Origin: Escherichia phage LF82-19
DNA: 52,748 bases
Reading direction: 5' to 3' (one strand)
Sequence record: PV660457
Shown: positions 6,029 to 50,798 of the stretch, piece after piece
Position numbering within the stretch: the first letter of the stretch is position 1
Layout of the letters: each line of letters opens with the position of its first letter
Notes under the pieces: generated by a model
What the model was told of the DNA's origin: nothing
Seen by the model: only the letters and a program-made list of their open reading frames with translations
Databases searched by the model: none
Translations under genes and position numbers: made by a program

Positions 6029-6043
6029 TAGCAAAAAGTGCTA
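6029..6043. promoter_or_regulatory. palindrome TAGCAAAAAGTGCTA within major-capsid promoter region
   Basis: lies in the spacer between TTGACC (6020-6025) and TATTAT (6042-6047); followed by hairpin GCGTGA ... TCACGC. Confidence 0.45.
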
Positions 6044-6090
6044 TTATTGACGCGTGACCTAATCACGCATTCAATCAAAAGGAAAATGTT

Positions 6091-7044
6091 ATGACCATGA
6101 AACTTGATTCATTCGAGCAGAACGAAATTACGGTAGGCCTTCGCAAGATGGGTGTTGCGGCAAGCAAAGCGGATCGCCTGGGTATCTGGACTGTAGAGCA
6201 GATGAAGCAGACGCTTAAGCGTCAGTATGAAGCGGCTTATCCCGAAACATCAGCGCTGGCGCTCTTCCCGGTTACAACCGAAATTGCACCAACAACCCGC
6301 ATCTTCGAATACATGAAGATTGACGGCGTGACCATGGCGAAAATCATCGCGGATTATACTGACGATCTGCCTCTGGTTGATGCGACCCATAGCCTGGAAA
6401 CAGGCCGCGTACACCGCCTGGGTAACGCGTGGATGATTTCCATTGACGAAATCAAAACTGGTGCGGCGCTGGGTTCTTCCCTGTCTGACCGCAAGGCAAC
6501 ACTGGCGCGCGAAGCGCACGAAACGCTGGTGAATACTCTGGTGTTCCAGGGTTCCAAGCCTCACAAAATTCTGTCTGTGTTCGACAACCCGAACATCACC
6601 CGCGTAACTTCAGCGGCTGGCGCGTGGGCTGACCCTGAAAAGGCAAGCGACGAACTGACGGATCTGATTGAGAAAATGGAAACCCTGACCAAAGGCAAGC
6701 ACAAGATCACCGATATTGTGATCCCGCCTTCTCAGCGTAAGATCCTGGCTAAGCGCATGCCGGAAACCACGATGAGTTACTTGCAGTGGTTTGAGTCTCA
6801 GAACGGCGGTATCACAATTAGCTCAATCTCTGAGCTTGAAGATATCGACGGCATCGGTACCAAAGGCATTCTTGCCTACGAGAAAGACCCGATGAACATG
6901 AGCATCGAGATCCCGGAAGCATTCAACATGCTCCCAATGCAGCCTAAAGACCTGCATTTCAAAGTGCCTTGTACGTCCAAGACTACTGGCCTGATCGTTT
7001 ATCGTCCTCTGACGATTATCTTGCTGGTTGGCGTAGGTAAGTAA
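6091..7044 (+). CDS. major capsid protein
   Basis: 317 aa, strong RBS, flanked by terminators, position in head module. Confidence 0.6.
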   Translation: MTMKLDSFEQNEITVGLRKMGVAASKADRLGIWTVEQMKQTLKRQYEAAYPETSALALFPVTTEIAPTTRIFEYMKIDGVTMAKIIADYTDDLPLVDATHSLETGRVHRLGNAWMISIDEIKTGAALGSSLSDRKATLAREAHETLVNTLVFQGSKPHKILSVFDNPNITRVTSAAGAWADPEKASDELTDLIEKMETLTKGKHKITDIVIPPSQRKILAKRMPETTMSYLQWFESQNGGITISSISELEDIDGIGTKGILAYEKDPMNMSIEIPEAFNMLPMQPKDLHFKVPCTSKTTGLIVYRPLTIILLVGVGK

Positions 7045-7050
7045 GACGAA

Positions 7051-7079
7051 GCCCCTGATTAATTTCAGGGGCTTTTTTG
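7051..7079 (+). terminator. rho-independent terminator
   Basis: GCCCCTGA-ttaatt-TCAGGGGC then TTTTTTG. Confidence 0.6.
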
Positions 7080-7147
7080 TTGACACGCTGCCGGAAAGTT
7101 TTGTATATTGACGGCTCACAAACAAGTAAACCAAAAGGTGAATTATC

Positions 7148-7414
7148 ATGGCTGCAAAGAAAAACGTAATGAAGAACATTGGCGCTTGCCTGGTGCGTAT
7201 CGGCATGGTGGATGTTAAGCCGAACGAAACGATTGAGCTGACAGACGAACAGCTAAATTCACAGGGTGTTAAATCCCTGCTACACCGTGAGGTTTTGGAG
7301 TTCGAAGATGATCCGAAGCGCACGCGTGAACTTCTCGAAGTGATTCGCAAGAAGGCGAAACCAAAAGAAGAGAAGACCATTGAACAGCGTGAGAAAGCGC
7401 CGGATATCGAATAA
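7148..7414 (+). CDS. hypothetical head-region protein
   Basis: 88 aa, charged C-terminus, between two terminators. Confidence 0.45.
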   Translation: MAAKKNVMKNIGACLVRIGMVDVKPNETIELTDEQLNSQGVKSLLHREVLEFEDDPKRTRELLEVIRKKAKPKEEKTIEQREKAPDIE

Positions 7415-7419
7415 CCGAA

Positions 7420-7446
7420 AGGGGGCGTAATGCTCCCTTTTTTTAT
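7420..7446 (+). terminator. rho-independent terminator
   Basis: GGGGGCG-taat-GCTCCC then TTTTTTTAT. Confidence 0.5.
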
Positions 7447-7460
7447 ACCTGGAGGAAACC

Positions 7461-7868
7461 ATGAACGAAGATGAAATGAAGATCGCAGAGATTATGCGAA
7501 AGCTTGCGCCAGCGCTAAAGAACGTGCCAGATCAGACGATTGTTGTTTGGATTAACCTTGCGGAAATGTTCGTGTGTGCCAATAAGTTTGGCGACAAGTA
7601 TCACCAGGCCGTCGCACTCTATACGATGCACCTGATGTTCCTTGATGGCGCGATGAAGGGCGAGAAAGAAACTCTTGAGAGTTATTCACGTCGTGTAACG
7701 TCATTCACTCTGAGCGGTGAATTTTCCACGAGCTACGGGGCAGTGACCGCCAATAATACCGGGCGATCAATCCATGATACGCCATGGGGCAAAATGTACG
7801 ATATTCTCAACAAGAAAAAAGGCGGCGGGTTCGGCCTGATTTCAGGAATCAGAGGTTGTGGGCGATGA
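7461..7868 (+). CDS. head-tail connector / adaptor (putative)
   Basis: 135 aa, position between capsid and tail genes. Confidence 0.4.
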   Translation: MNEDEMKIAEIMRKLAPALKNVPDQTIVVWINLAEMFVCANKFGDKYHQAVALYTMHLMFLDGAMKGEKETLESYSRRVTSFTLSGEFSTSYGAVTANNTGRSIHDTPWGKMYDILNKKKGGGFGLISGIRGCGR

Positions 7869-19643: not shown

Positions 19644-19674
19644 TGGTGTTTCCTCGATTCGTTTATTTAAATTG

Positions 19675-19717
19675 ATTATATCCACCAATCAGGGCGCGTG
19701 CTTAGCAATTCGTGCTA
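19675..19717 (-). promoter_or_regulatory. palindrome TAGCA-N5-TGCTA plus -10 TATAAT (22-nt gap)
   Basis: on minus: TAA-TAGCACGAATTGCTA, 22 nt, TATAAT; precedes secreted protein gene. Confidence 0.5.
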
Positions 19718-20368
19718 TTAGTTCCACCCAAGGAATCGAGCCATTGGAATCTTTAGGTTTCCGCGACCGTTGAAAATATCATTAAACCCTCGCTGATTTC
19801 GTCTGATCCATGTAGTCTGCAACTCCGAGCCAGTCCAGCGCATGAGGTTGCCAGAGTAACCAGAGGCAACGCCATCCGTTGACATTTCACCCATGCAGGA
19901 CTCCCACAGAAAGAATGGGTTGTAACCAGGTGATACGCTGGCAACGTTACCCTCAAGAGGCCAATTCCCGGCAACCTCAAGGAAGCCAGTTACACGAGGC
20001 ATTGAGGCAGCGCCCAAAGCAGACCAGATCAGTTGCCCGGAACCGTCGAACACGTCAAGCACGCCAGATGGAAAGTTTGCGTTTCTGGTTGTCCTGATCA
20101 CGCGGATTGAGTTTGGTAGGAACATATCAGATCCCGGAAACCCCCACGCGCCGTTAGAAAGAAATTGCACCCAATGCAAATATCCGTCTTGCTTCCTCGT
20201 GTTTTGGTTTAGGTAAGCCAGTGAGCTTATGTTGCCAAAAGGTGTGTTTAGGTTGTAGTCACCAGTATTTAAATATGACGGGTTGAAAGATGAGTGGTAG
20301 ATCGTGTGTTTCTGATCTGAGTTAATCATCATCGCCCCGGCGTTATTGTATACCTCAAAACCAGGCAT
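19718..20368 (-). CDS. hypothetical protein (MPG-paralog, long)
   Basis: 216 aa; shares MPG(F/L) N-terminus and (F/W)DGSG(Q/N)LI motif with the upstream 99-aa ORF. Confidence 0.45.
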   Translation of the reverse strand: MPGFEVYNNAGAMMINSDQKHTIYHSSFNPSYLNTGDYNLNTPFGNISSLAYLNQNTRKQDGYLHWVQFLSNGAWGFPGSDMFLPNSIRVIRTTRNANFPSGVLDVFDGSGQLIWSALGAASMPRVTGFLEVAGNWPLEGNVASVSPGYNPFFLWESCMGEMSTDGVASGYSGNLMRWTGSELQTTWIRRNQRGFNDIFNGRGNLKIPMARFLGWN

Positions 20369-21176: not shown

Positions 21177-22232
21177 ATGAATCCAACAAGACCTGAATCA
21201 GATTTTTTCTGGTTCACCAGCGATAAAATGCCGAACGATTTTTACCACGACAAAGAGGCATGGACTTTTGATTTCGTATCAGGCTCCAGCCTTTGCGACA
21301 TTCACCAATCGTCACCCGCTTCATGGTTCTTCGCCAAAAACGAGATCACAAAGGCGCTTGAGTTTGGTACTCAGTCACACACCAACTTTGAATCGAAGTC
21401 GCTGTTTGATGCAACGTATCGACGCGCACCAGCCCCGGAAGACTTCGAAAACTTGATTACGTCTCAGGCAGCGCTGGCTACGAAGTTGAAATCATTCGGC
21501 CTGACTGGTACAAGCGGGAAGCAATATCCAGAGCTGATCAAAATGATGGTTGATTGCGGTGAAGATCTTAACGTGTTGTGGCTTATTGATATGATCGCAC
21601 AGTGCCAGGCTTGGGCTGATGGCGTTGAGTTGGTCAAGGCTGAGGATTACGACAAGTGCAAGATGATGCGCGCCGTTCTGGAATCAGTGCCGGAATACGC
21701 AATGATGATGGAAAGCCCAACGGCAATGCACGAGCTTTCATTGTTCGGAAAGATCAGCGGCGTTGACGTAAAAGTCAGACTTGACTACGTTGACACGGTT
21801 ACTGATCCAAACCTCATTCGTCATTTTGGGTACGATCCAGAGCTACACCCTGAAATCATTGTGATTATGGACTACAAAACGACGAGCAGCGCCAACCCGG
21901 CAGATTTTGACCGAAAGGCATTCGATCTTGGGTATTATCTGAAGATGGCATTGCAGCGTGATTTATTCGTCAAAGTGTACGATGAGAAGCGCCCCGTTTG
22001 CTTGGTTCTGCTTACACAGGAAAAGAAAGAGCCATTCTTGCCACTTGGAAGGCCAATGACGCGCGAGCAGCTTCTTTTAGGCCGCAAGCAGTATATGGGT
22101 GTCATTCACACTTACTCGATCTGCAAGGAATCAAACGTTTGGCCTGGCTATGCAAACGGCGCTCCTTTCGTTAGCCTTGAAACGCCTGACTACATCAAGC
22201 GCCAGCATAAGGATATTTTCGGCGGAGAGTAA
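21177..22232 (+). CDS. PD-(D/E)xK-type exonuclease (putative recombination exonuclease)
   Basis: ATG 21177 with RBS GAGGAA; D ... IMDYKTT motif resembles D-(D/E)xK; adjacent to annealase and SSB. Confidence 0.45.
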   Translation: MNPTRPESDFFWFTSDKMPNDFYHDKEAWTFDFVSGSSLCDIHQSSPASWFFAKNEITKALEFGTQSHTNFESKSLFDATYRRAPAPEDFENLITSQAALATKLKSFGLTGTSGKQYPELIKMMVDCGEDLNVLWLIDMIAQCQAWADGVELVKAEDYDKCKMMRAVLESVPEYAMMMESPTAMHELSLFGKISGVDVKVRLDYVDTVTDPNLIRHFGYDPELHPEIIVIMDYKTTSSANPADFDRKAFDLGYYLKMALQRDLFVKVYDEKRPVCLVLLTQEKKEPFLPLGRPMTREQLLLGRKQYMGVIHTYSICKESNVWPGYANGAPFVSLETPDYIKRQHKDIFGGE

Positions 22233-22274
22233 TAGCACTAAAAGCTAAACAAAAGCGGTGATGTTTGGTATAAT
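22233..22274 (+). promoter_or_regulatory. palindrome variant TAGCA-N5-AGCTA plus hairpin with TATAAT
   Basis: TAA-TAGCACTAAAAGCTA, 21 nt, TATAAT inside hairpin AGCGGTGA ... TCACCGCT. Confidence 0.45.
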
Positions 22275-22311
22275 CACCGCTCAATCAAACGAACGAAAAG
22301 AGGCATAAGCA

Positions 22312-25752: not shown

Positions 25753-25775
25753 TGTCAACACCTCTTGTTAGTAAA

Positions 25776-25790
25776 TAGCACGAATTGCTA
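25776..25790. promoter_or_regulatory. palindrome TAGCACGAATTGCTA downstream of tail-fiber -10
   Basis: lies between the extended -10 and the RBS of the tail fiber gene, opposite in orientation to early-promoter copies. Confidence 0.45.
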
Positions 25791-25796
25791 AAACGC

Positions 25797-25805
25797 ATTA
25801 TATCA
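25797..25805 (-). promoter_or_regulatory. extended -10 element (TGATATAAT) for tail fiber gene
   Basis: TGnTATAAT on minus strand about 45 nt upstream of ATG. Confidence 0.4.
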
Positions 25806-26842: not shown

Positions 26843-27301
26843 TCATTGATTAGCTTTTCGTGCTTTCAGTGTTTTCCAGGATGGTTGCTCCGGCTTGGTT
26901 TCTAACTCTTCCTTTCTCACCACGCGCAGCATGTGACGCTTTTTGCATCGGACTGTTAGCGGCTTGCCGTTGCCGTCGAATGACAGATCAGGGCGGCACC
27001 ACGACGCGCGGAAACCTCCGCCATTTCGTTTATATGCGTTGTGCGCCAGTTGCGCGCCTCGCGCTGAAATCATGCCGCGTTGCCGCCACTCATAAACAAC
27101 CTGAAGCGAAACGCGCAATTCTTTCGCCAGCTTTGCAGGTGAGCCGTAGAATTCAAGGATGGTATCTAATCTAGCCTTAAGCCCGGCCTTTACTTCGTCT
27201 CGTAAAACATAGTAACCTACTGGACGTTTTCGGCGCTTAGCGTCACTTCCGCGCTTCGTTCCATTGTTCCCATTAAGCGTGCGTTTATCTACGGTTTCCA
27301 T
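26843..27301 (-). CDS. HTH DNA-binding protein (Cro/YdaS-like, putative regulator)
   Basis: AKLAKELRVSLQVVYEWRQRG HTH-like segment; basic N- and C-termini; divergent from helicase promoter. Confidence 0.5.
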   Translation of the reverse strand: METVDKRTLNGNNGTKRGSDAKRRKRPVGYYVLRDEVKAGLKARLDTILEFYGSPAKLAKELRVSLQVVYEWRQRGMISARGAQLAHNAYKRNGGGFRASWCRPDLSFDGNGKPLTVRCKKRHMLRVVRKEELETKPEQPSWKTLKARKANQ

Positions 27302-27314
27302 AATTATTCCTCAA

Positions 27315-27356
27315 TAGCATTTTTTGTTAAAACTGGATTGTTGAGGCGTGTATTAT
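27315..27356 (+). promoter_or_regulatory. palindrome TAGCA-N5-TGTTA plus -10 TATTAT
   Basis: TAGCATTTTTTGTTA, 21 nt, TATTAT; upstream of helicase operon. Confidence 0.5.
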
Positions 27357-29463: not shown

Positions 29464-29879
29464 TTACTGACAAGGGCGATTATCTTGAATATTACACCCC
29501 TGATAAGGGGTGTACCCTGAAGGAAGAGACTCACCAGGTTAACGGCGTTTCGTGGCTAAAGTACCACTACCCAAACCTGATGTTTTGGCACACGGTCAAC
29601 GAGGGGCAGAAGCACATAAACACAGCCCTAAAAGATGAGCAAGCCGGGCTTAAGAAAGGTGTCAGCGACTTCGTATTTCTGATTGGTCATTTCGATCGGA
29701 AATATTGCTTTGGGGCTATTGAGCTGAAGCGCACCAACAAGAGCGGAAAGTACAAGGCATCACCAGTCAGTAAGGAGCAGAAAGCTTTCCTTCTCGGTGT
29801 GCGTGAACGTGGGGGGTTCGCGGCTGTGGCTTACGGATTCGAGGAGTTGAAGAAAGCCGTTGAGGACATGATGAAATAG
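29460..29879 (+). CDS. VRR-NUC-like nuclease
   Basis: 139 aa with D ... SDFVFL ... IELK PD-(D/E)xK-like motif; overlaps helicase stop. Confidence 0.55.
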   Translation: MITDKGDYLEYYTPDKGCTLKEETHQVNGVSWLKYHYPNLMFWHTVNEGQKHINTALKDEQAGLKKGVSDFVFLIGHFDRKYCFGAIELKRTNKSGKYKASPVSKEQKAFLLGVRERGGFAAVAYGFEELKKAVEDMMK

Positions 29880-29919
29880 CACTATTTGCTAAACCTGTGC
29901 CGGAACAATCCGGCATAAT
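29877..29919 (+). promoter_or_regulatory. palindrome TAGCA-N5-TGCTA plus hairpin with CATAAT
   Basis: stop codon TAG is the first half-site; 22-nt gap; upstream of dam. Confidence 0.5.
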
Positions 29920-29949
29920 GCAACTACACAAACAAACAGGAATGAGATC

Positions 29950-30665: not shown

Positions 30666-30878
30666 ATGGCTACTGCATTCGGACTGTATAAGGCAAAAGT
30701 TATTCGCGCTCTGATGGCGGCTGGATTCAAGCACAACGCGGAGGAATTCGCTGATTGCCTTGATATGAGCTTTGACGAGATCAAGCATCTTCACCACACG
30801 CAATGGGGAGAATCAATCAAGCGCGATCTCGAAGAGTACCGGAAAGAGAATCCGCACGAATTCGCAACACAGCACTAA
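30666..30878 (+). CDS. hypothetical protein
   Basis: 70 aa ORF, 2 nt after dam stop. Confidence 0.4.
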   Translation: MATAFGLYKAKVIRALMAAGFKHNAEEFADCLDMSFDEIKHLHHTQWGESIKRDLEEYRKENPHEFATQH

Positions 30879-30912
30879 TTGCTAAACGTACCCGGCGAAA
30901 GTCGGGTATTAT
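30870..30912 (+). promoter_or_regulatory. palindrome cAGCA-N5-TGCTA plus -10 TATTAT
   Basis: stop TAA inside spacer; 22-nt gap. Confidence 0.45.
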
Positions 30913-30940
30913 TATTTTACACCAACAAGAGGAATCACCC

Positions 30941-31746: not shown

Positions 31747-32883
31747 ATGTCACTGAAGAAAATCACCGACGAGCAGTTAAACGCCGAGCGAGAGTCGGGT
31801 AAAACTTACCGCCAGATCGCGGAAGAGTACGGAATGAACATACGCACCGTCGAGGCTCGCGGCGCACGCCTGGCTAAGAAAGGTTTCGGTCACGGTAACG
31901 GCGATGCATCGCGATTTGTTCCAGAAGGCTTCATGGTTAAGGGCACATCAACCATGCACCGCGCGAACGGAGAGGTTATCGTTAGCTGGACGAAAACCAA
32001 TCAGGATCATGAGAAGTTAGCCGCCATGCTTGAGCACGCGATCGAGGCGTTTTGCGTTGAGCTTCCACGCGCAGCCGCTACACCTTCCAACGTTGGTGAG
32101 GTGATGGAGAACCAGCTCGCGCTTTATCCTGTATTCGATCTGCATATCGGTGCAATGGCTCATAAGCATGAGTGCGGCGAGAACTACTCAACCGATATTG
32201 CCGAGAAGGTTTTGGGCGATTTCTTCAAGTACGCTGTGAACGTTGCGCCGAAGGCGAAGAAGGCGGTTGTGCTGGTTGGCGGTGACTACCTCCACTCTGA
32301 CGGCCTGGACGCTGTAACACCCGCAAGCGGTCACGTTCTGGATCAGGACTCACGTTACGCTAAGCTGGTTCACGTTGCCATTCGCTCACTCCGTCGCGGC
32401 GTTGCGCTTCTGCTTGATAAGCATGAAGAGATTGAGATCCAGATTATCGAAGGCAACCACGATCAGGCGGGTATGATTTGGCTACGCGCTGCAATGGCGG
32501 CATACTTCGAAGATGAGCCGCGCGTCACGGTTGACACATCGCCTATGATCCTTCACCGTACCAAGTGGGGCAAAACGCTGTTAGGCTACACTCACGGTCA
32601 CACGATGAAGAAAGCAGAAACCCGCCTCCAGGCGCTGGCTACTGACTTCCGTTCTGAGTTCGGCACGAGTGAATTCGTTTATACTCACTCAGGGCATTGG
32701 CATCACCAGACGCTTACAGAGCACACCTTAGGCATTGACGAGGTTCACGGTCAGTTAGGTGCCAAAGATGCGTATGCGGCTCGCGGTGGATGGCGCTCAT
32801 ATCGCCAGGCGGCGGTAATTGTCTATGATAAAGAATTTGGCGAGGTAGGCCGATTCGTTTATCGTCCTCAGATGAGCAAATAG
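31747..32883 (+). CDS. HTH domain fused to calcineurin-like metallophosphoesterase
   Basis: N-terminal TYRQIAEEYGMNIRTVEARGARL HTH; then DLHIG, GGDYLHSDG, EGNHD, GHTH, GHWHH metallophosphatase motifs. Confidence 0.6.
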   Translation: MSLKKITDEQLNAERESGKTYRQIAEEYGMNIRTVEARGARLAKKGFGHGNGDASRFVPEGFMVKGTSTMHRANGEVIVSWTKTNQDHEKLAAMLEHAIEAFCVELPRAAATPSNVGEVMENQLALYPVFDLHIGAMAHKHECGENYSTDIAEKVLGDFFKYAVNVAPKAKKAVVLVGGDYLHSDGLDAVTPASGHVLDQDSRYAKLVHVAIRSLRRGVALLLDKHEEIEIQIIEGNHDQAGMIWLRAAMAAYFEDEPRVTVDTSPMILHRTKWGKTLLGYTHGHTMKKAETRLQALATDFRSEFGTSEFVYTHSGHWHHQTLTEHTLGIDEVHGQLGAKDAYAARGGWRSYRQAAVIVYDKEFGEVGRFVYRPQMSK

Positions 32884-32923
32884 CACTTTTTGTTAAAAGC
32901 CGATCGCGTTGGTCGGCTATACT
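32881..32923 (+). promoter_or_regulatory. palindrome TAGCA-N5-TGTTA plus hairpin with TATACT
   Basis: TAG stop is the first half-site; 22-nt gap. Confidence 0.5.
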
Positions 32924-32952
32924 CATTTCATCAACTCAGAGGAGTAACGGAA

Positions 32953-36611: not shown

Positions 36612-36638
36612 GTTAAAAACTCCTTGTTTGGTTGCTCA

Positions 36639-36682
36639 ATGATAGAGCAACCAATGATAGTGCGTTTTGGCAAAAAGTGCTA
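36639..36682 (-). promoter_or_regulatory. palindrome TAGCA-N5-TGCCA plus long hairpin with TATCAT
   Basis: 23-nt gap; 10-bp stem TTGGTTGCTC/GAGCAACCAA with TATCAT in loop. Confidence 0.45.
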
Positions 36683-36686
36683 TTGG

Positions 36687-37103: not shown

Positions 37104-37132
37104 TTTTAGTTCCTCGTTGTTGGTGTGAATGA

Positions 37133-37175
37133 ATAATAACAAAACCCGCCGAAGCGGGTTTAACAAAAAGTGCTA
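37133..37175 (-). promoter_or_regulatory. palindrome plus terminator-like hairpin plus -10 TATTAT
   Basis: on minus: TAGCACTTTTTGTTA-AACCCGCTTCGGCGGGTTTTG-TTATTAT; same 40-nt element as 48965-49007. Confidence 0.5.
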
Positions 37176-37865
37176 TTTGTAACGGTTGTACTGGAAGACG
37201 GCGCGAGCGAATCCGCGCGGAGTTAGGGAGCGGAGTTGCTTAGTCTTCGCAGACTTTCCGCCGAGGAACTTCCAGCCCCAAAAGAAATGCAAGCCTTCCT
37301 CTTTTGGTAATGGTGCCTTCTCTGGCTCGCGGAAACCGTTGCCATGCCAGATGCAAGTTTTTTTCGTGTAGCCGTCTCGCAGTGGCATTTTGGGGTGCCA
37401 GGAGCCTTCACGCGCATCGACGTATTGCCCGAAGTCACGAGGATGGAAATAGAATTTAGGCTTGCCCAGGTTTTCCGGCTTTGACATTGCCCCTACCGGG
37501 TTTTCAATCATCCACGGGATCTGGTAGCGTTCGCCAATCTCAATGACAACCTTTGCACACTCAAGCGCATATTTCATTTCGGCGTCGTCTCTCTCGTGCT
37601 GCGCGCCAGATTGGGCAAACAGAGTGCAATCCGGGAAGCCAAAAACGATATCAGGCTTGGGCAACCCCAGGATCTCAGCCTTTGTGATGAAATCCTTATC
37701 AATCCACGTATTCACATATCGGATATTTGGGTGATTCATCTTCACGGCGTACTCGCCATGATTGCCGGAGTCAGCGTTGAAGCATATCACCTGACAACCA
37801 ACCTCAGCCCAAGGCAATCCCATAATGCCGGAGCCGTCAAACAGCGACCATACAACACGCTTCAT
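37173..37865 (-). CDS. C5-cytosine methyltransferase-like protein (short)
   Basis: motif I LFDGSG, motif IV FPDCTLF (PC), motif VI ENP (ENV-like); only 230 aa, no obvious target-recognition domain. Confidence 0.55.
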   Translation of the reverse strand: MKRVVWSLFDGSGIMGLPWAEVGCQVICFNADSGNHGEYAVKMNHPNIRYVNTWIDKDFITKAEILGLPKPDIVFGFPDCTLFAQSGAQHERDDAEMKYALECAKVVIEIGERYQIPWMIENPVGAMSKPENLGKPKFYFHPRDFGQYVDAREGSWHPKMPLRDGYTKKTCIWHGNGFREPEKAPLPKEEGLHFFWGWKFLGGKSAKTKQLRSLTPRGFARAVFQYNRYK

Positions 37866-38786: not shown

Positions 38787-38816
38787 CTTCATTTCCTTGT
38801 TTGTTGGTGTAACTGC

Positions 38817-38859
38817 ATTATTGCAGATCACGCCGATTTAGTTTTAACAAAAAGTGCTA
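38817..38859 (-). promoter_or_regulatory. palindrome TAGCA-N5-TGTTA plus hairpin with AATAAT
   Basis: TAG stop of upstream gene is the first half-site; 22-nt gap. Confidence 0.5.
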
Positions 38860-39204
38860 TTTGATGCCGTCAAAGGTTGTGTATTTCAGGTTCACACTGA
38901 CCTTGCCATCATCGAAATGGAAAGCGGGAGCCTCAAAGCGGATGATGTTATTCATCGTTCCGGCCTCTACGTAGCGTCGTGCGCCATTTCTCATGGGGAT
39001 AACGCTGACTCTCTTTGCCGCATCGAATGGATTTGAAACGCCAAAGTATCGACATACAGCGCCGCGCAACGCCTCATCTTCATGCTTATGCATATCACGG
39101 ATGAGGCGATTTTTAGCGTCCATCATCACATCATAGCTTGCACAGCTAGAGCCGATGTTGCTATATTCGCGCATTCCGCCAACCTTGAATTGATTGTTGT
39201 TCAT
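38857..39204 (-). CDS. hypothetical protein
   Basis: 115 aa. Confidence 0.45.
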   Translation of the reverse strand: MNNNQFKVGGMREYSNIGSSCASYDVMMDAKNRLIRDMHKHEDEALRGAVCRYFGVSNPFDAAKRVSVIPMRNGARRYVEAGTMNNIIRFEAPAFHFDDGKVSVNLKYTTFDGIK

Positions 39205-39660: not shown

Positions 39661-39691
39661 TTGCTTATCTCCGTTTCGTTTTAGTGGTTAC

Positions 39692-39734
39692 ATTATGCCG
39701 GGTTTCCGCCCGGCACGTTTAGCAATTAGTGCTA
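39692..39734 (-). promoter_or_regulatory. palindrome TAGCA-N5-TGCTA plus hairpin with CATAAT
   Basis: on minus: TAGCACTAATTGCTA, 22 nt (GTGCCGGG ... CCCGGC hairpin), CATAAT. Confidence 0.5.
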
Positions 39735-39941
39735 TCAGATTGATTCGATTACCGCGTGGAAATCTTTGCGGGTTTTGCAGTCTGCCAGGCGTGCATAACA
39801 TGCTTTAGCGTAGTCAGTATCGGCCTGAGTTTCGAAGATGCCACACTCTTTGGCGATAGCTTTTAATGTACGCTTTCCGCTTTCGATATCAGCCTTGATG
39901 CCGTTGATGGTGTTGATGTCGATGATGTTAAGAGTTGTCAT
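39735..39941 (-). CDS. hypothetical protein
   Basis: 68 aa. Confidence 0.4.
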   Translation of the reverse strand: MTTLNIIDINTINGIKADIESGKRTLKAIAKECGIFETQADTDYAKACYARLADCKTRKDFHAVIESI

Positions 39942-39978
39942 TTTGCTATCCTTTTGTGTGCTTCGTTTCGATGGAGTA

Positions 39979-40021
39979 ATAATAGCAAAAGCCAGATCGG
40001 GAGTTTTAGCAAAAAGTGCTA
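39979..40021 (-). promoter_or_regulatory. palindrome TAGCA-N5-TGCTA plus -10 TATTAT
   Basis: 22-nt gap; palindrome itself flanked by inverted repeat CCGGATCGGGA / TCCCGATCTGG. Confidence 0.5.
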
Positions 40022-40083
40022 TTTTCCCGATCCGGCGCGCGGAACATCTGCCCCATGGTTTGGGGTGTTAACCAGTCAGAGCG

Positions 40084-41367: not shown

Positions 41368-41398
41368 TGCTGTTTCCTCAGTTCGTTTCGTTGAGATA

Positions 41399-41441
41399 AC
41401 TATAGCCGAAACATCCTGAGTGGTTTTAGCAAAAAGTGCTA
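41399..41441 (-). promoter_or_regulatory. palindrome TAGCA-N5-TGCTA plus -10 TATAGT
   Basis: 22-nt gap; leftmost promoter of the minus-strand early operon. Confidence 0.5.
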
Positions 41442-41562
41442 TTGATTCGATTTATCCAATTATTCCATTATTCCAACTATTCTGGAATATTCCTGAATAA
41501 CCGAATATCTGGAATAGTCAAAATGACTATGGCTCTCCGTTCGTTTTAGCGAACAAACGTTC

Positions 41563-42015: not shown

Positions 42016-42044
42016 TTGACTACAATTAAGCTTTTCCGCATTAT
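42016..42044 (+). promoter_or_regulatory. strong sigma70-like early promoter
   Basis: TTGACT - 17 nt - CATTAT, about 30 nt upstream of first plus-strand early gene. Confidence 0.55.
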
Positions 42045-42783: not shown

Positions 42784-42798
42784 ATGGAATAATTGGAA

Positions 42799-42841
42799 TA
42801 GCACGAACTGCTAAAACACCAGATCGGGGCTATGCCATAAT
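42799..42841 (+). promoter_or_regulatory. palindrome TAGCA-N5-TGCTA plus hairpin with CATAAT
   Basis: 22-nt gap; hairpin GGGGCTA ... TAGCCCC. Confidence 0.5.
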
Positions 42842-42872
42842 AGCCCTACACCAACAAAACGAGGTTAGCACA

Positions 42873-43294: not shown

Positions 43295-43599
43295 TGATTT
43301 TGAATGACCGAGAGGAGCTACAGGAAGCCGTGAGACTGGCGCTAAAATCAGACGTGCCATTTATCGAAGTTGTGCTTTGCGTGGCTGCCAGCCTCGATGT
43401 ACGGCCCCGTGTGGCTGCTTTCATGGTTCACTCTAACACCTTCGATATGGCTGGCACATTCCAGGGTGATAAATTCCTTGAATTCTTGATGCAGCTAACC
43501 GATAAGTTCGAAGCCATGCATCCTGACCGGATAAGCGCCAGTGGGCAGATCCTGATCGAGGAGTTCACCAACTTTGTGATTCGCGGTACATGGCGATAG
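43291..43599 (+). CDS. hypothetical protein
   Basis: ATGATG start overlapping previous stop. Confidence 0.45.
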   Translation: MMILNDREELQEAVRLALKSDVPFIEVVLCVAASLDVRPRVAAFMVHSNTFDMAGTFQGDKFLEFLMQLTDKFEAMHPDRISASGQILIEEFTNFVIRGTWR

Positions 43600-43639
43600 C
43601 ACTTTTTGTTAAACGTGTGCCGGGCTAATCCGGCATACT
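43597..43639 (+). promoter_or_regulatory. palindrome TAGCA-N5-TGTTA plus hairpin with CATACT
   Basis: TAG stop is the first half-site; hairpin TGCCGG ... CCGGCA; 22-nt gap. Confidence 0.5.
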
Positions 43640-43669
43640 GTCACCACACCAACCAATCAAGAAGTCAAC

Positions 43670-43948: not shown

Positions 43949-44268
43949 TGAAAAAGTTTGTCGGATCGTGTTTGCTGGTTTCTGTCCTGGCGCTGGCGTT
44001 CATCGCTCTCGCAGGGTGTGACGACTCAACCCGCGTGCCTCGTGAGCAGCGTAGCAAGGTGCGGGTCACAACGGCTGAATCCGGGCGCGTGCAGGTGCGC
44101 AAGATCAGCGAATTCCGTGACGACCTGGCTTATGACAGCTATCGAGGCGTGTACATCATCACGGACACTGAAACCGGGCAGGAGTTCATAGGCGTTAGCG
44201 GTGTTGGTATCAGTGCTATCGGGCAACACAATTGCGGCAAAAACTGCTGGAAGAAAGATGAGAGATAG
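43948..44268 (+). CDS. lipoprotein (early-expressed)
   Basis: MKKFVGSCLLVSVLALAFIALAGC: signal peptide with lipobox LAGC. Confidence 0.55.
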   Translation: MKKFVGSCLLVSVLALAFIALAGCDDSTRVPREQRSKVRVTTAESGRVQVRKISEFRDDLAYDSYRGVYIITDTETGQEFIGVSGVGISAIGQHNCGKNCWKKDER

Positions 44269-44308
44269 CACTTTTTGTTAAAACTGCCCGGAGCGATTCG
44301 GGCATAAT
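44266..44308 (+). promoter_or_regulatory. palindrome TAGCA-N5-TGTTA plus hairpin with CATAAT
   Basis: hairpin GCCCG ... CGGGC; 22-nt gap. Confidence 0.5.
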
Positions 44309-44337
44309 GATTTCACACCAAACGAGAGGAAGTGAAA

Positions 44338-45080: not shown

Positions 45081-45174
45081 TGCAATCGGCGCGGCATGTC
45101 TTCTTGCTTCCGTCACTGTGGTTGCGGTTGGCGCTGTTTGGCTAATGGCAAAAATATTGCGTGAGATTGACGAA

Positions 45175-45217
45175 TAGCACGAATTGCTAAAACGGCATGG
45201 CTCCTGAGTGGTATCAT
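45175..45217 (+). promoter_or_regulatory. palindrome TAGCA-N5-TGCTA plus hairpin with TATCAT
   Basis: hairpin ACGGCATG ... CATGCCGT; 22-nt gap. Confidence 0.5.
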
Positions 45218-45249
45218 GCCGTTACACCAAACAAACAGGAGTCACCCAA

Positions 45250-45615
45250 ATGAAAGTTAAATGCATTAGTTCAGACGTTTTGCTTGATGGTTACTACACC
45301 CCAGGTAGAGTCTACCGATTAAGGCGAGAAAGGGGCAAAAGCTATAGAACCGTTAAATCAAACAGAGGCGTTGATCTTGGTGTTATCCACGACCCATTAA
45401 AAAGAGGTCGGTTTTTCGTTGCTGGATTTGAACGTTGTGTGTTTGATTCGGCTCCGCACCGATTCGTGAAGCGCAACCAAAGCGCCGCGCTGGGGCAGAT
45501 TGAGATCGACTATACGCGATGCAAGCGCAGCATTCGCAATCAGGCTCGCAACATCGCAAAAGAGCACTTCTCGTGCGGCAAGCTTGAGAAGATTGCGCGA
45601 GGCTATAAGCGATAG
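45250..45615 (+). CDS. small basic protein, MKVKC family member
   Basis: MKVKCI ... YYTPGRVY; Arg/Lys-rich. Confidence 0.5.
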   Translation: MKVKCISSDVLLDGYYTPGRVYRLRRERGKSYRTVKSNRGVDLGVIHDPLKRGRFFVAGFERCVFDSAPHRFVKRNQSAALGQIEIDYTRCKRSIRNQARNIAKEHFSCGKLEKIARGYKR

Positions 45616-45655
45616 CACTTTTTGCTAAAACTTCCGCAAGGGCATTTGATATAGT
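45613..45655 (+). promoter_or_regulatory. palindrome TAGCA-N5-TGCTA plus hairpin with TATAGT
   Basis: hairpin AAGGGCA ... TGCCCTT; 22-nt gap. Confidence 0.5.
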
Positions 45656-45695
45656 GCCCTTATTGAAGCAGAGCAAACCAATCAGAGGATTCAAC

Positions 45696-46519: not shown

Positions 46520-46708
46520 ATGCAGATCTACAAATCGCCAGGCGGAGCAAGATATGTCGTTGTTGATGGCGTTGTTTACTGCAAGCCAGCAGATGGAAGC
46601 ATGGTTTACAGGCCGCGCATGACGGTTGAGCGATATCTTGAGCTTATCGCTGGCGGTCTTCTGACATTCCATTGCGTTATTCGCCCGGTAATGTTCAAAA
46701 AGCACTAA
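46520..46708 (+). CDS. hypothetical protein
   Basis: 62 aa. Confidence 0.4.
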   Translation: MQIYKSPGGARYVVVDGVVYCKPADGSMVYRPRMTVERYLELIAGGLLTFHCVIRPVMFKKH

Positions 46709-46742
46709 TTGCTAAAACTTGCTAAGAGGCATTTGTTATAGT
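46700..46742 (+). promoter_or_regulatory. palindrome aAGCA-N5-TGCTA plus hairpin with TATAGT
   Basis: stop TAA inside spacer; hairpin AAGAGGCA ... TGCCTCTT; 22-nt gap. Confidence 0.5.
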
Positions 46743-46780
46743 GCCTCTTGTCGAGTTAACACAAATACAGAGGATTTGAA

Positions 46781-47485
46781 ATGAGCATTCAACGCTACTA
46801 CCCTGAAGTGAAGTACACAGTGCGGGAAACTCGCGTTAATATGGCTCCACACGAGCGCGGAAGCTATGTGACCTATGAATCACACATCGAAGAATTGCGC
46901 CGCGTACAGGCCGAATTAGACGCCTTAAAAGCGATGCAAAAAAGCGATTTTTTCTATCACCTAAAGCCAGTCTTCGAAAAGGCGCTTGAAGAGGCGATTG
47001 CTATCGTCGTGAAGCAAGCCAGCCAATCAGTTTTCAAGGTTGACGCTGAGGCGCTAATTGCTGCTGACGTTGGCCGTTGGATGGAGAAGCACATGAACGA
47101 GCGCGCCGGATTTGCAACTGGCAGCCTGTTTGTGGGTGATGTAGAGGTTGATTTCGACAACAACAAAGTCAAGATCACCGATGCGCTAATCAAGAGCGGC
47201 GTTGTGACTGAAAGCGAATTATTCTCTTTCCCTAAGGCACGAAAGAACATTGTCGTTTGCACAAGCGCCGATGAAGGTAGCGGTTTCACTATTGGAAAGA
47301 AATACGCATTCGATCGCAATGAAGGGAACATTATCCGAATCTGCCAGGATGATTTTGTTTCAGATCTCGCAGAGGATGATTGCTGGATTGCAAGCCGCCG
47401 CCGAAACCTGGTAAGCGGTGAATTCAGATACTTCTTACAGGGGCATACAGAAGGCAAGCGCGCATCTTTCGAGATCGTTGAATAG
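46781..47485 (+). CDS. hypothetical protein with C-terminal MKVKC-family-like segment
   Basis: 234 aa; internal VVCTSADEGSGFTIGKKY matches the family motif. Confidence 0.5.
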   Translation: MSIQRYYPEVKYTVRETRVNMAPHERGSYVTYESHIEELRRVQAELDALKAMQKSDFFYHLKPVFEKALEEAIAIVVKQASQSVFKVDAEALIAADVGRWMEKHMNERAGFATGSLFVGDVEVDFDNNKVKITDALIKSGVVTESELFSFPKARKNIVVCTSADEGSGFTIGKKYAFDRNEGNIIRICQDDFVSDLAEDDCWIASRRRNLVSGEFRYFLQGHTEGKRASFEIVE

Positions 47486-47525
47486 CACGAATTGTTAAAC
47501 GGGCATGTGTTCCGACTGGTATCAT
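47483..47525 (+). promoter_or_regulatory. palindrome TAGCA-N5-TGTTA plus -10 TATCAT
   Basis: 22-nt gap; CCGACTGGTATCAT resembles 45175 and 49742 copies. Confidence 0.5.
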
Positions 47526-47555
47526 GTGCCAACACAAACAAGCAAGGGGCTTTAA

Positions 47556-48963: not shown

Positions 48964-48964
48964 A

Positions 48965-49007
48965 TAGCACTTTTTGTTAAACCCGCTTCGGCGGGTTTTG
49001 TTATTCT
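48965..49007 (+). promoter_or_regulatory. palindrome plus terminator-like hairpin plus -10 TATTCT
   Basis: TAGCACTTTTTGTTA-AACCCGCTTCGGCGGGTTTTG-TTATTCT; inverted duplicate of 37133-37175. Confidence 0.5.
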
Positions 49008-49036
49008 TGCTTTAACGAAACGAAATGGAGTGAAGA

Positions 49037-49267
49037 ATGAAAACTTTATCAGAGCTGAAGTCGATCGCGGCTGACTTGCAGGAGCGAATGAAGCCACTAA
49101 ACCACAAGCTGGAAAACTCGCGCATTACTATAGCCTCAAGAATGTCTATCGAGTGCTCACTGCGCGAACTTAAAATCATGTGGCATGATGCCATGTGCGA
49201 CGTTCACGCTCACCCTGAGTACGAAGGTGAGTTTAAATTCCAGAAAGAAAACAACCCATACCGATAA
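49037..49267 (+). CDS. hypothetical protein
   Basis: 76 aa. Confidence 0.4.
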   Translation: MKTLSELKSIAADLQERMKPLNHKLENSRITIASRMSIECSLRELKIMWHDAMCDVHAHPEYEGEFKFQKENNPYR

Positions 49268-49277
49268 GGATTCAATA

Positions 49278-49574
49278 ATGAACACTATCAAAAAGTTGAC
49301 TCCAAACATGGCAACCAAAATCAAGTACGAGATCCCGGAGGATGGCACATTCTTAGCCGTCTGGACTTATCGCGAGATCCCGTACTCCGGTACTTATCAA
49401 TGGCGAAACGGCGAGCTTGCCGTGTGGGTTGATGGCGTTGGCTGGGAAATTGCCGGGCATGGAGCGGCGGAGGACTATTACGATTTCAACTGCCTCGTGT
49501 CTATGGCTAGTGGTGAGAATTACGGCGGTGCTTGTCACTTTGTTGCGGTTGTAGTGGTTGAGGAAACAGCGTGA
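49278..49574 (+). CDS. hypothetical protein
   Basis: start MNTIKK with RBS TAAGGA; track ORF 49185 is an extension. Confidence 0.4.
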   Translation: MNTIKKLTPNMATKIKYEIPEDGTFLAVWTYREIPYSGTYQWRNGELAVWVDGVGWEIAGHGAAEDYYDFNCLVSMASGENYGGACHFVAVVVVEETA

Positions 49575-49744
49575 AGACTTTTATTATTTTCCTAGTTGGC
49601 GCTTGCATGGTTAGCGTTTCTGATAACTTCACAGTTTTCGTTGGCGCTGCGATGGTGTCGTGGGCTTACTACCGATGCGGAAAGGCTGACGGAATAGCGG
49701 AAGGTAAACGCCAGGCGCTGGCATCCGGCACTAAGTTAAAGTAG
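49571..49744 (+). CDS. small membrane peptide (GTG start, 57 aa; uncertain)
   Basis: GTGA overlap with previous stop; two hydrophobic segments; ends at TAG that forms the next palindrome half-site. Confidence 0.25.
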   Translation: MKTFIIFLVGACMVSVSDNFTVFVGAAMVSWAYYRCGKADGIAEGKRQALASGTKLK

Positions 49745-49784
49745 CACGATTTGTTAAAAGGGGATTCGTCCTGACTGGTATAAT
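49742..49784 (+). promoter_or_regulatory. palindrome TAGCA-N5-TGTTA plus hairpin with TATAAT
   Basis: hairpin GGGGATT ... AATCCCC; 22-nt gap. Confidence 0.5.
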
Positions 49785-49814
49785 CCCCACATCAACCAAG
49801 CAGAGGAAACGATC

Positions 49815-50267
49815 ATGAAATTAGTTTGCACATCATCACGCGTCAAAAGCTTCACCGTTGGAAAGAAATATGAAAGCCGCACAGTCGAGCATTACGGAAT
49901 TGTTACGCACGAGGTGGACGGAGACACCGCTTGCGGCTGGGTGATTAACGATGGCCTGAGCATTTGCGGAGCTGATCACTCAAACCCAATGGCAACTTTC
50001 CGCAAGGATAAGAGCATGATGAAGATGCTTGTTCGCGCATTCGTATTGGTTGCAAAGGCTCGCGGTTGGGGTGATAGCAAGAGCGGGGCTTACAAATCCT
50101 GGAGCGGCACACCTTACAAAAACTCCAGAGATTGGGCGCGAGCTATTGCCTTCAGCTACGATGTTGGGAGTGTTGCGCGCGAGATAATTGATGAAGATCC
50201 TAACGTGAAACTCATCGACCAGGAAGCGGTAAACCTGTTTGCCGAAAACGAGATCGACAACTGGTAA
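49815..50267 (+). CDS. MKLVC family protein
   Basis: MKLVCTSSRVKSFTVGKKY N-terminal motif; 150 aa. Confidence 0.5.
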   Translation: MKLVCTSSRVKSFTVGKKYESRTVEHYGIVTHEVDGDTACGWVINDGLSICGADHSNPMATFRKDKSMMKMLVRAFVLVAKARGWGDSKSGAYKSWSGTPYKNSRDWARAIAFSYDVGSVAREIIDEDPNVKLIDQEAVNLFAENEIDNW

Positions 50268-50329
50268 TTTGCGCAAGGCCGTTTATAATAGCGGCCTTAC
50301 TCAGACAAACCAATCAGAAGGAAATCACC

Positions 50330-50758
50330 ATGAAATTACGTTGCACATTCCTTGAGCCAGCTTTCGCAAAAGCTCTGGCTGAGTTCTACACCATCGGCAA
50401 AACTTACGCCGCATCCATCAAGCCGGGATCAAAGGTTGGCGCTGTGCTGGTGGAGTCAAACGAAGGCAATGAAGGCGATCAGCTTGCAGCAGTTCCGAGC
50501 CGCTCAGGGTTCGAGGTTCAAATTAAGAACCAAATTCCGATCGCAAAGTTCGAGGTTGTTGGCAAGCGTGCGGTGAAGCTTGTTAAGACTGAGAAGCGCG
50601 TAACGCTGAAACTTGATGGCGTGGGGAAATCAGATAAGCGCCGATTCCGCCGTGTTTGCCGCCAGTATCGAAAGTTGAAATTCATCAACCCTGGATTCTA
50701 TTATGATCTGGAATCCGATCGCCACATGGCTAAACTTGCGCGACATCACCGCCGATAG
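50330..50758 (+). CDS. MKLRC family protein
   Basis: MKLRCT ... FYTIGKTY; basic C-terminus; preceded by hairpin AAGGCCG-tttataatag-CGGCCTT. Confidence 0.5.
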   Translation: MKLRCTFLEPAFAKALAEFYTIGKTYAASIKPGSKVGAVLVESNEGNEGDQLAAVPSRSGFEVQIKNQIPIAKFEVVGKRAVKLVKTEKRVTLKLDGVGKSDKRRFRRVCRQYRKLKFINPGFYYDLESDRHMAKLARHHRR

Positions 50759-50798
50759 CACTTTTTGCTAAAACTCGAAATCGGGGTTGCGATATAGT
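50756..50798 (+). promoter_or_regulatory. palindrome TAGCA-N5-TGCTA plus hairpin with TATAGT
   Basis: hairpin GGGGTT ... AACCCC; 22-nt gap. Confidence 0.5.

Follow-up and report, generated by a model that had tools for sequence, protein, structure and literature searches.

A repeated promoter element of a T1-like phage as a putative class II marbox for the host regulators MarA, SoxS, and Rob

Introduction

Phages of the T1 type (Drexlerviridae) belong to the most frequent phages of E. coli and Klebsiella and have found use in therapy cocktails; to our knowledge, their transcription is essentially uncharted. What, then, is the role of a short sequence that recurs 24 times in the genome of such a phage? 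The window analyzed here is the whole stretch of 52,748 nt from Escherichia phage LF82-19, which is T1-like.

The original prediction was not aware of a description of the element for T1-like phages, but the accessible part of the TLS paper (PMC11447400, 2024) already describes this 21-nt repeat for TLS, T1, Rtp, and Rogue1 and leaves its function as an open question. The repeat described there has an identical consensus (aaATAGCACnnnTTGnTAAAA), is oriented with transcription, falls into the same spacer subgroups, and lies about 76 nt before start codons, which in the present phage are found at cassette positions 72-84. The TLS genome itself was also scanned, and the copies studied here agree with the T1-like repeat in aaATAGCACnnnTTGnTAAAA, orientation, and distance to the ATG. 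As far as the accessible text of that paper goes, it gives no function and draws no link to a -10 hexamer, a start site, hairpins, or a marbox, and its authors found just three sigma-70-like promoters (PMC11447400). The repeat itself has thus already been reported; new here is its identity as a putative consensus marbox.

Results and Discussion

An asymmetric 21-nt repeat family

The motif TAGCA-N5-TGCTA was present in 11 exact copies (0.05 expected) and, with at most one mismatch, in 24 copies (1.3 expected; largest shuffle, 4), and the latter search reproduced exactly the 24 palindrome coordinates listed by the original prediction. The position-weight-matrix scan that had been proposed as a check was bimodal and separated the 24 copies (23-35 bits) cleanly from all else (<11 bits). 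All copies except those at 6029 and 25776 (22/24) pointed toward the downstream gene, and the described fusion to stop codons was also found: the in-frame stop of the upstream ORF was the TAG of the element (positions 1-3) in 11/24 copies, and an upstream stop codon lay within 7 nt of the element in 17/24. The majority of the early and middle transcription units appear to be driven by the family, which has hardly any copies in the structural operon, in agreement with the earlier reading.

The symmetric palindrome, on the other hand, did not survive the ungapped alignment of the 24 copies (position 1 = T of TAGCA). The conserved unit is not the 15-bp palindrome but an asymmetric sequence of 21 nt with the consensus AATAGCAC-www-TTGYTAAAAC. 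Its symmetry is broken by the strongly conserved C6, A16, A17, and A0, as well as by C6 versus T10, and position 13 is C or T, whereas its partner, position 3, is invariably G. Both sides of the element carry an A-rich flank. Conservation was therefore not two-fold symmetric, as a symmetric operator for a dimer would require, and its asymmetry fits a monomer site such as the marbox bound by MarA, SoxS, or Rob.

Promoter geometry of the cassettes

As predicted, a -10-like hexamer (tATaaT, positions 38-43) lies 22 nt after the palindrome; it is accompanied by G at position 36 and by A at position 50, the inferred +1, each in 22/24 copies, with a pyrimidine before the A. In a wider survey of 95 copies from seven phage sequences, the gap between the end of the element and the -10 was 18 bp in 70 copies, 17 bp in 9, and 19 bp in 4, while G at -14 and A at +1 occurred in 79 (83%) and 76 copies, respectively. 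The cassettes have an extended (TGn) -10, and many hexamers are weak (CATAAT, CATACT, TATTCT). The lack of a TTGACA-like -35 was borne out by a mean of 2.7 matches out of 6, compared with 2.4 for random sequence and a mean of 1.9 for published class II promoters. Relative to the inferred +1, the 21-nt element spans -51 to -31, has an A/T-rich spacer with an AAAA run, and is centered at about -40.5 to -42, which agrees with the class II activator-type geometry proposed earlier. These data support the view that the elements are promoter cassettes that have, instead of a -35, an activator-type site in class II geometry upstream of a predicted +1.

Two other promoter elements were compared and did not match. 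The sigma-54 consensus, TGGCAC-N5-TTGCW, has GG and GC motifs at a fixed spacing; the element reads AG rather than GG and its spacing is 2 bp shorter. The UP element is A/T-rich, covers about -59 to -38, and has no conserved G/C; the invariant G/C positions and the span of -51 to -31 do not fit it. Activator sites that likewise replace or abut the -35 at promoters with a good -10 are the T4 MotA box at -30, the Mu Mor/C site near -43.5, and the lambda cI site at PRM near -42. These are bound by phage-encoded proteins, in contrast to the present site, which matches a host regulator consensus. The cassettes and other features are listed in Table 1.

Table 1. Predicted promoter cassettes and associated features in the window.
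Feature	Coordinates	Strand	Details
Reversed copy	5994..6044	-	Marbox 6025-6044, within spacer of major-capsid promoter; predicted repression position
Major-capsid promoter	6020-6047	+	TTGACC 6020-6025, 16 bp, TGcTATTAT 6039-6047
Class II cassette	19668..19718	-	Marbox 19699-19718; -10 TATAAT 19675-19680; predicted +1 19668
Class II cassette 5' of Erf gene	22232..22282	+	Marbox 22232-22251; TGgTATAAT one base nearer (17-bp gap)
Copy reversed relative to tail-fibre gene	25775..25805	+	Marbox 25775-25794, just downstream of tail-fibre extended -10 TGATATAAT (25797-25805, - strand), over predicted start site; predicted repression position
Only recognizable phage transcription factor (152 aa, phrog_2856)	26843..27301	-	One Cro-like HTH
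Class II cassette, helicase gene	27314..27364	+	Marbox 27314-27333; -10 region overlaps opposite-strand TGATATAAT (27352-27360, -) of HTH regulator gene
Class II cassette, Dam methylase gene	29876..29926	+	15-mer GCACTATTTGCTAAA
Class II cassette	30869..30919	+	GAAA-loop hairpin, then TATTAT
Class II cassette	32880..32930	+	Exonuclease-gene stop codon is the TAG
Class II cassette, DNA helicase gene	36633..36683	-	19-bp gap, TATCAT
Class II cassette	37126..37176	-	Canonical UUCG-loop intrinsic terminator hairpin; T-run merges into TGtTATTAT
Class II cassette	38810..38860	-	
Class II cassette	39685..39735	-	
Class II cassette	39972..40022	-	Without strong hairpin
Outermost leftward class II cassette, divergent early region	41392..41442	-	GGAATA repeats before
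Sole canonical sigma-70-like promoter match, divergent early region	42016..42044	+	TTGACT-17-CATTAT, upstream of DUF7174 gene
First rightward class II cassette	42798..42848	+	GGAATA repeats before
Class II cassette	43596..43646	+	
Class II cassette	44265..44315	+	
Class II cassette	45174..45224	+	Hairpin loop contains -10
Class II cassette	45612..45662	+	Hairpin loop contains -10; stem covaries with T1 and TLS orthologues
Class II cassette	46699..46749	+	Hairpin loop contains -10; covarying stem
Class II cassette	47482..47532	+	G.U pairs in stem, valid in sense RNA only
Class II cassette	48964..49014	+	UUCG-loop terminator hairpin
Class II cassette	49741..49791	+	TGgTATAAT
Last class II cassette ahead of packaging and structural genes	50755..50805	+	

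Match to the host marbox

The published marbox, GCANNWWNTGNNAAA, was matched by 22/24 copies (0.96 expected), and GCAHWWWWTGYYAAA was matched by 17/24 (0.08 expected). With a matrix built solely from 87 Salmonella MarA/SoxS/Rob/RamA ChIP-seq sites, all 24 copies scored at or above the host-site median, the family median exceeded 95% of the host sites, and three copies exceeded the host maximum. One phage 15-mer, GCACTATTTGCTAAA in cassette 29876..29926, recurred without any change in a SoxS ChIP-seq site of Salmonella (rmbA), and the marRAB marbox of E. coli K-12, ATGCCACGTTTTGCTAAATC, has TTTTGCTAAA in common with the phage consensus. In K-12, 18 bp separate the marbox of micF from the downstream -10, a distance that equals the commonest phage gap.

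Class II Mar/Sox/Rob promoters of E. coli and Salmonella (micF, lpxC P2, and others) have the same marbox, orientation, and -35 overlap, and lack a -35. The phage sites are likewise forward in 22/24 copies, overlap the -35 position, are centered within about -36 to -55, and have no recognizable -35 hexamer. Host marboxes, however, are degenerate and scattered, whereas the phage has about 21 near-consensus copies that would drive most units of a 52-kb virus; unlike at host class II promoters, each putative marbox of the phage is joined to both a stop codon and a hairpin. In sequence, orientation, and spacing, the repeat matches a MarA/SoxS/Rob site as placed at the host promoters that these proteins activate.

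Queries with approximate MarA and SoxS sequences found no homologue in the six-frame translation of the phage, and neither phmmer nor Pfam gave a match to an AraC-type protein. The phage probably switches on most of its early genes via host regulators rather than its own, with binding and activation deduced from these matches. The same cassette was found in unrelated enterobacterial phages, namely IME_EC2 (six copies) and RB43/CfP1 (at least four of marbox type).

Alternative binders and functions

The original prediction had named two phage proteins as candidate binders. That encoded at 31747-32883 is a member of a DNA-repair exonuclease family with a below-threshold match to sigma-70 region 4, and a regulatory role for it is not supported. 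In a second model, the HTH protein (26843-27301) would bind the palindrome as a dimer and act as the class II activator of a phage-specific regulon. Its Cro-like fold is usually dimeric on DNA, the half-sites are one helical turn apart, and it is the only phage transcription factor and a core gene of the family. Moreover, the overlap with the promoter on the opposite strand places marbox 27314-27333 in the 5' leader DNA of its own gene, an autoregulation-like layout that is kept in T1, TLS, NBD2, and others. However, conservation of the site is asymmetric. The protein has conserved N- and C-terminal regions beside the single HTH; its recognition helix varies among homologues, and the protein falls to 46% identity across T1, TLS, NBD2, STSR3, and ESP2949-1, while the DNA motif is invariant. 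No homologue was found in IME_EC2 (tblastn best E 0.19) despite its six cassettes, and the outermost early units would be left without an activator when infection starts. The protein is probably not the binder of the element, and a regulon of this kind is unlikely.

It is slightly less likely that an unrecognized phage or virion protein mimics MarA at a marbox-like site, which would make the phage independent of the host stress state. For about 60 small ORFs no function is known, and A2 and T10 are conserved more than marbox definitions demand, which leaves room for a second binder. Against such a mimic stand the lack of an AraC-type match by phmmer or Pfam and the fact that IME_EC2 shares with the phage only replication/recombination proteins and one 70-aa protein, in which no DNA-binding signature was found.

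An equally low probability is given to a promoter that needs no activator, in which the extended -10 is enough and the element upstream of it works in a UP-like manner or through DNA shape on the alpha subunit; such a role is one suggestion in the accessible part of the TLS paper (PMC11447400). The G at -14 in 83% of copies, the A/T-rich spacer with its AAAA run, and the success of T1 in unstressed cells are in its favor, but neither the near-invariant GCAC and TG nor the position at -50 to -31 agrees with the UP consensus, and many of the hexamers are weak.

A pure repressor or roadblock site of the "stoperator" type, or a decoy that sequesters host MarA/SoxS/Rob, is very improbable: the copies are intergenic and oriented as are L5 stoperators, three are in repression positions, and 24 high-affinity sites per genome could titrate a factor, but the fixed 18-bp register to the extended -10 and the +1 A in about 75% of the 95 copies is a promoter property, and the phages are lytic, with no repressor known from them. 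Finally, a palindrome working in RNA, as a small stem-loop beside the stop codon or as a processing site, is scarcely credible, even though the C-to-T change at position 13 preserves a G.U pair and the element is fused to stop codons, because the stem has only 5 bp, there is no complementarity between the conserved flanks, and C/T at position 13 is exactly the marbox "Y".

Hairpins between marbox and start site

The variable hairpins noted earlier proved real, with a mean MFE of -10.6 kcal/mol compared with -5.8 kcal/mol for random 39-mers, a mean z of -2.6, and z < -2 in 66%. The sense RNA folded better than the antisense in 70 versus 23 copies (p about 1e-7), the stems covary, and UUCG and GAAA loops occur; in the T1 GenBank record, the same hairpins are annotated as terminators. 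Covariation and better folding as sense RNA suggest that the hairpins are probably terminators of upstream transcription.

A comparable composite is the PeSL cassette of T4-like phages, which reaches from stop codon to ATG, has a stem-loop between the -35 and -10 or over the -10, flanks small ORFs, and has shown promoter and terminator activity with lacZ fusions (PMC2839356, PMC4122927). The present cassettes also combine a promoter and a stem-loop between a stop codon and the next ATG; however, PeSLs have a consensus sigma-70 -35 (PMC2839356, PMC4122927), whereas the phage cassettes have the marbox in its place.

Proposed mechanism of activation by host factors

We consider it fairly likely, on the strength of these sequence matches, that the copies are class II marboxes for host MarA/SoxS/Rob that recruit host RNA polymerase to the early and middle units. 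Each copy would form the upstream half of an intergenic cassette of roughly 75 bp. This cassette would begin with the upstream stop codon (often the TAG of the element), followed by a 20-bp consensus marbox (about -50 to -31) and the variable hairpin; next would come the extended -10, with its G at -14 and its hexamer occupying -12 to -7, and the +1 A, with a CA-rich leader and then a Shine-Dalgarno sequence between it and the ATG. The marbox would be an asymmetric site for MarA, SoxS, and Rob, monomeric activators of the AraC family (in Klebsiella and Salmonella also RamA), placed forward over the missing -35 as at the class II promoter of micF, where the bound activator substitutes for -35 recognition and makes contact with both sigma-70 region 4 and the C-terminal domain of alpha.

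Since the outermost early units use the element, the factor must precede phage protein synthesis, and a host factor that is already there at infection would bring sigma-70 RNA polymerase to about 21 early/middle units. The obvious choice would be Rob, which is constitutive, supplemented by MarA or SoxS under stress. The hairpins in the sense RNA would act as terminators or attenuators of incoming upstream transcription, so that each unit would be insulated. The three reversed copies over the capsid, tail-fibre, and HTH-regulator core promoters should allow the same factor to repress. The arrangement within the capsid-promoter spacer is kept in T1 (15071) and TLS (15027), and the reversed tail-fibre copy is conserved in T1, NBD2, and L005; it is also there in STSR3, but no clear -10 was found for it.

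Unstressed laboratory E. coli supports good growth of T1-like phages, yet published work places Rob mostly in inactive aggregates in standard growth, with low MarA and SoxS without stress. Activation may thus be dispensable or otherwise supplied, and the extended -10 by itself may give enough activity. We know of no host-factor screen that names rob, marA, or soxS for T1-like phages. It is possible, although doubtful as a whole, that T1-like phages, and some unrelated enterobacterial phages through the cassettes they share, have nearly all of their early/middle program wired to Mar/Sox/Rob, that the reversed sites repress the capsid, tail-fibre, and regulator promoters, that replicating genomes with 24 sites each titrate the factor to bring about an early-to-late switch, and that phage development responds to bile, antibiotics, and oxidative stress.

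Significance

The class II marbox reading offers a concrete and cheaply testable answer to the question that the TLS authors printed about the 21-nt repeat. If true, it would mean that a lytic phage borrows a stress regulon of its host on a genome-wide scale, and it would explain the movement of cassettes between unrelated phages of the same hosts. It would also tie phage gene expression to gut bile salts and antibiotic stress, and link it to the same regulators by which multidrug resistance is conferred.

Repeat Family and Promoter Register

The exact sequence TAGCA-N5-TGCTA occurred 11 times in the window (0.05 expected), and 24 copies were found with one mismatch allowed (1.3 expected), at the coordinates of the original prediction. 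In a weight-matrix scan, these copies scored 23-35 bits and everything else less than 11 bits, which bears out the 24-copy family. The orientation toward the downstream gene (22 of 24 copies) and the fusion to stop codons were likewise recovered: in 11 copies, the upstream ORF ends in frame with the TAG of the element; start codons lay at element positions 72-84, counted from the T of TAGCA. The element had been described as a 15-bp palindrome; the repeat itself stood, whereas the unit conserved in an ungapped alignment was longer and asymmetric (AATAGCAC-t/g-w-w-TTG-Y-TAAA-a/c-c).

The predicted -10-like hexamer appeared in the same alignment as tATaaT at positions 38-43. A G at position 36, beyond a variable stretch, and an A at position 50, preceded by a pyrimidine, were each present in 22 of 24 copies. 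These positions thus fit an extended -10, its G at -14, followed by a discriminator of 6 nt and by an A at +1, a register that places the element at about -51 to -31. Among 95 copies pooled from seven phage sequences, the element was separated from the -10 by 18 bp in 70 copies, by 17 bp in nine and by 19 bp in four; 79 copies had G at -14, and 76 had A at +1. The predicted absence of a -35 hexamer also held in this set, where the match to TTGACA at that position was no better than random. TTGCTA was rejected as a -35 because 22 bp to the -10 is too long, and a sigma-54 reading (TGGCAC-N5-TTGC) because its spacing is 2 bp short and AG replaces GG.

Features of the phage sequence and their positions
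Feature	Position	Strand	Observation
Element copy	6029		Reversed; inside the 16-bp spacer of a canonical promoter (TTGACC ... TGcTATTAT) for the major capsid gene; also in T1 and TLS
Element copy, reversed	25776		Directly after the TGATATAAT of the tail-fibre gene
Element copy, reversed	27315		Leader DNA of the regulator gene
Extended -10, tail-fibre gene	25797-25805	-	Perfect TGATATAAT, without -35
Extended -10, regulator gene	27352-27360	-	Identical TGATATAAT, without -35
Element copy	29877		Identical to the rmbA site of the Salmonella ChIP-seq set
Degenerate element copy	about 41633-41649		CCGCACGATTTGCTAAT
GGAATA(A/T)T repeat clusters	41455-41520 and 42772-42800		Include a 15-nt perfect inverted pair
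GATGT tandem run and extremely AT-rich TATATA-type region	41563-41582 and 41720-41800		Inside the 450-bp gene-free early intergenic region
CA-rich leader (example)	44315-44327		Cassette positions 50-62
Region of the 147-bp length difference from PV660453.1 (tail-fibre gene)	23533-25852		
Phage HTH protein (regulator)	26843-27301	-	Cro-like
Second candidate regulator	31747-32883		Exonuclease family member

Resemblance to the Marbox

By its sequence, the element is a marbox, the asymmetric site of the host regulators MarA, SoxS and Rob. The definition 5'-gcannwwntgnnaaa-3' (PMC12052159) picked out 22 of the 24 copies and no other site in the window (0.96 matches expected), and 5'-GCAHWWWWTGYYAAA-3' (PMC6900184) matched 17 (0.08 expected). 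On a matrix built solely from 87 Salmonella MarA/SoxS/Rob/RamA ChIP-seq sites (PMC10268841), none of the 24 copies scored below the host median, the median of the family was higher than 95% of host sites, and three copies outscored the best host site. Besides the two published definitions, the comparison draws on the actual sequences of micF and mar: the marbox of marRAB in E. coli K-12, given as the top strand's reverse complement, is ATGCCACGTTTTGCTAAATC, against a phage consensus of ATAGCACTTTTTGCTAAAAC. A 20-bp consensus, AYnGCACnnWnnRYYAAAYn, and an '18-19 bp' rule were reportedly given by Martin et al. in 1999. The apparent palindrome follows almost automatically from a marbox, since GCA is the reverse complement of TGC and the downstream half is commonly TGCTAAA; beyond this, just the A in front of GCA adds a constraint. 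Symmetry is broken at C6, Y13 and A15-A17, the very positions specified by the marbox, and A2 and T10 are conserved beyond its requirements.

Class II marboxes lie over the -35 in forward orientation, clustering near -41, and their promoters have no -35, as sigma region 4 is displaced by the activator. In K-12 micF, 18 bp separate the marbox ACAGCACTGAATGTCAAAAC from TAGAAT, the same distance as in the phage cassettes, so that the class II geometry of the original prediction was upheld. The repeats are quite probably class II-type promoter cassettes. The extended -10 alone may be sufficient for promoter activity. A base-pair-distortion mechanism for MarA, as outlined in PMC12781870, was judged inapplicable.

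The original prediction knew of no description of the element for T1-like phages, but it is not new. A direct repeat of 21 nt, aaATAGCACnnnTTGnTAAAA, was reported in the genome paper on phage TLS (PMC11447400); of its 21 copies, 18 are intergenic, and it runs in the direction of transcription, about 76 nt ahead of start codons. The repeat is present also in T1, Rtp and Rogue1. Its authors found only three sigma-70-like promoters, suggested stoperators, enhancer sites or UP elements, and left the function as an open question. Literature searches yielded nothing relevant on transcriptomics or mapped start sites in Drexlerviridae, or on any connection of phage T1 with marboxes or SoxS/MarA.

Candidate Binding Proteins

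A monomeric host factor is the likely partner at these cassettes, and MarA, SoxS or Rob is reasonably probable in that role, as judged from the site; in unstressed cells, most Rob is in aggregates. The window showed no detectable homologue of MarA or SoxS. The phage HTH protein, originally proposed as the binder, is an unlikely partner. Its model showed a single Cro-like HTH (pLDDT 87; closest to Xfaso 1 Cro and N15 Cro) and no AraC-type double HTH. Among 24 homologues the recognition helix was variable, whereas the DNA motif was constant even in phages whose regulator is only 46-55% identical, and no homologue was found in the Murrayvirus IME_EC2, which carries the cassettes. The motif is invariant in T1, TLS, NBD2, STSR3 and ESP2949-1, which leaves no motif changes to set against those of the helix. 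Unrelated N- and C-terminal motifs of the regulator were invariant, and its best-conserved parts lay outside the HTH (DKRTxNGNNGTxRG...GYYVLKDEVKAGL and GFRASFCRPDLxFDxNGKP, respectively). A related-locus search with the regulator alone returned only 2 loci.

The second proposed regulator belongs to an exonuclease family, a 70-aa protein common to the window and IME_EC2 lacked a DNA-binding signature, and Pfam found no DNA-binding domains in ten further ORFs of 108-150 aa.

Hairpins and Leaders

Positions 16-54 folded with a mean of -10.6 kcal/mol, against -5.8 kcal/mol for random 39-mers (mean z -2.6), and sense RNA folded better than antisense in 70 versus 23 copies (p about 1e-7). In 13 same-register cassettes, 92% of cells paired versus 72% in shuffles, and 6 of 7 pairs carried double changes, a count biased by picking these cassettes by register; slid controls collapsed. 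UUCG and GAAA loops occurred among the hairpins, several of which are rho-independent terminators in the T1 GenBank annotation. Lying upstream of +1, the hairpins can act only on transcripts from upstream. This architecture matches the PeSLs (promoter-terminator stem-loops) of T4-like phages, in which the stem-loop either separates -35 from -10 or covers the -10, and in which terminator activity was measured (PMC2839356, PMC4122927). The leaders can be sorted into a small number of conserved CA-rich types (ACACCAACAA, ATCGAAACGAA, AATCAAACGAACGAA), which are apparently unstructured and translation-enhancing. In ESP2949-1 and IME_EC2, their place is taken by a GC-rich hairpin.

Reversed Copies and the Early Region

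Three copies stand in reversed orientation at the promoters of the major capsid, tail-fibre and regulator genes. The TGATATAAT of the regulator gene overlaps the helicase-cassette -10 on the opposite strand. From their placement, a factor bound at the 6029, 25776 and 27315 copies would repress, and the idea that replicating genomes titrate it and release late promoters is attractive but speculative.

The GGAATA(A/T)T clusters lie directly upstream of the two cassettes flanking the divergent early region and may be sites for another factor, possibly the Cro-like regulator. The GATGT and TATATA-type region is possibly an origin or packaging signal.

Distribution of the Cassettes

Over its first 20 kb, the window matched Escherichia phage LF82-10 (PV660453.1) and its sibling phages at 100% identity; for NBD2 and further T1-like phages the figure was about 75%. 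The LF82-10 annotation has the usual T1 layout; its record is 147 bp longer, and a downstream offset of 147 places the difference in the tail-fibre gene. Scans found 23 cassettes in T1 and about 20 in TLS, as well as cassettes in NBD2, STSR3 and ESP2949-1.

Cassettes also occurred in unrelated phages outside Drexlerviridae. The 41.5-kb IME_EC2, which has only replication and recombination genes in common with the window, contained six, in which the -14 G and a TATAGT occupied the same positions, and T4-like RB43/CfP1 (Escherichia phage RB43 and Citrobacter phage CfP1; 180 kb) at least four. Complete units of marbox, hairpin, extended -10 and CA-rich leader were seen in a T4-like myovirus and a Murrayvirus. 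This distribution suggests horizontal transfer of cassettes with their ORFs among unrelated enterobacterial phages. Dependence on a host factor makes a promoter portable among unrelated phages of the same hosts, whereas dependence on a private regulator does not.
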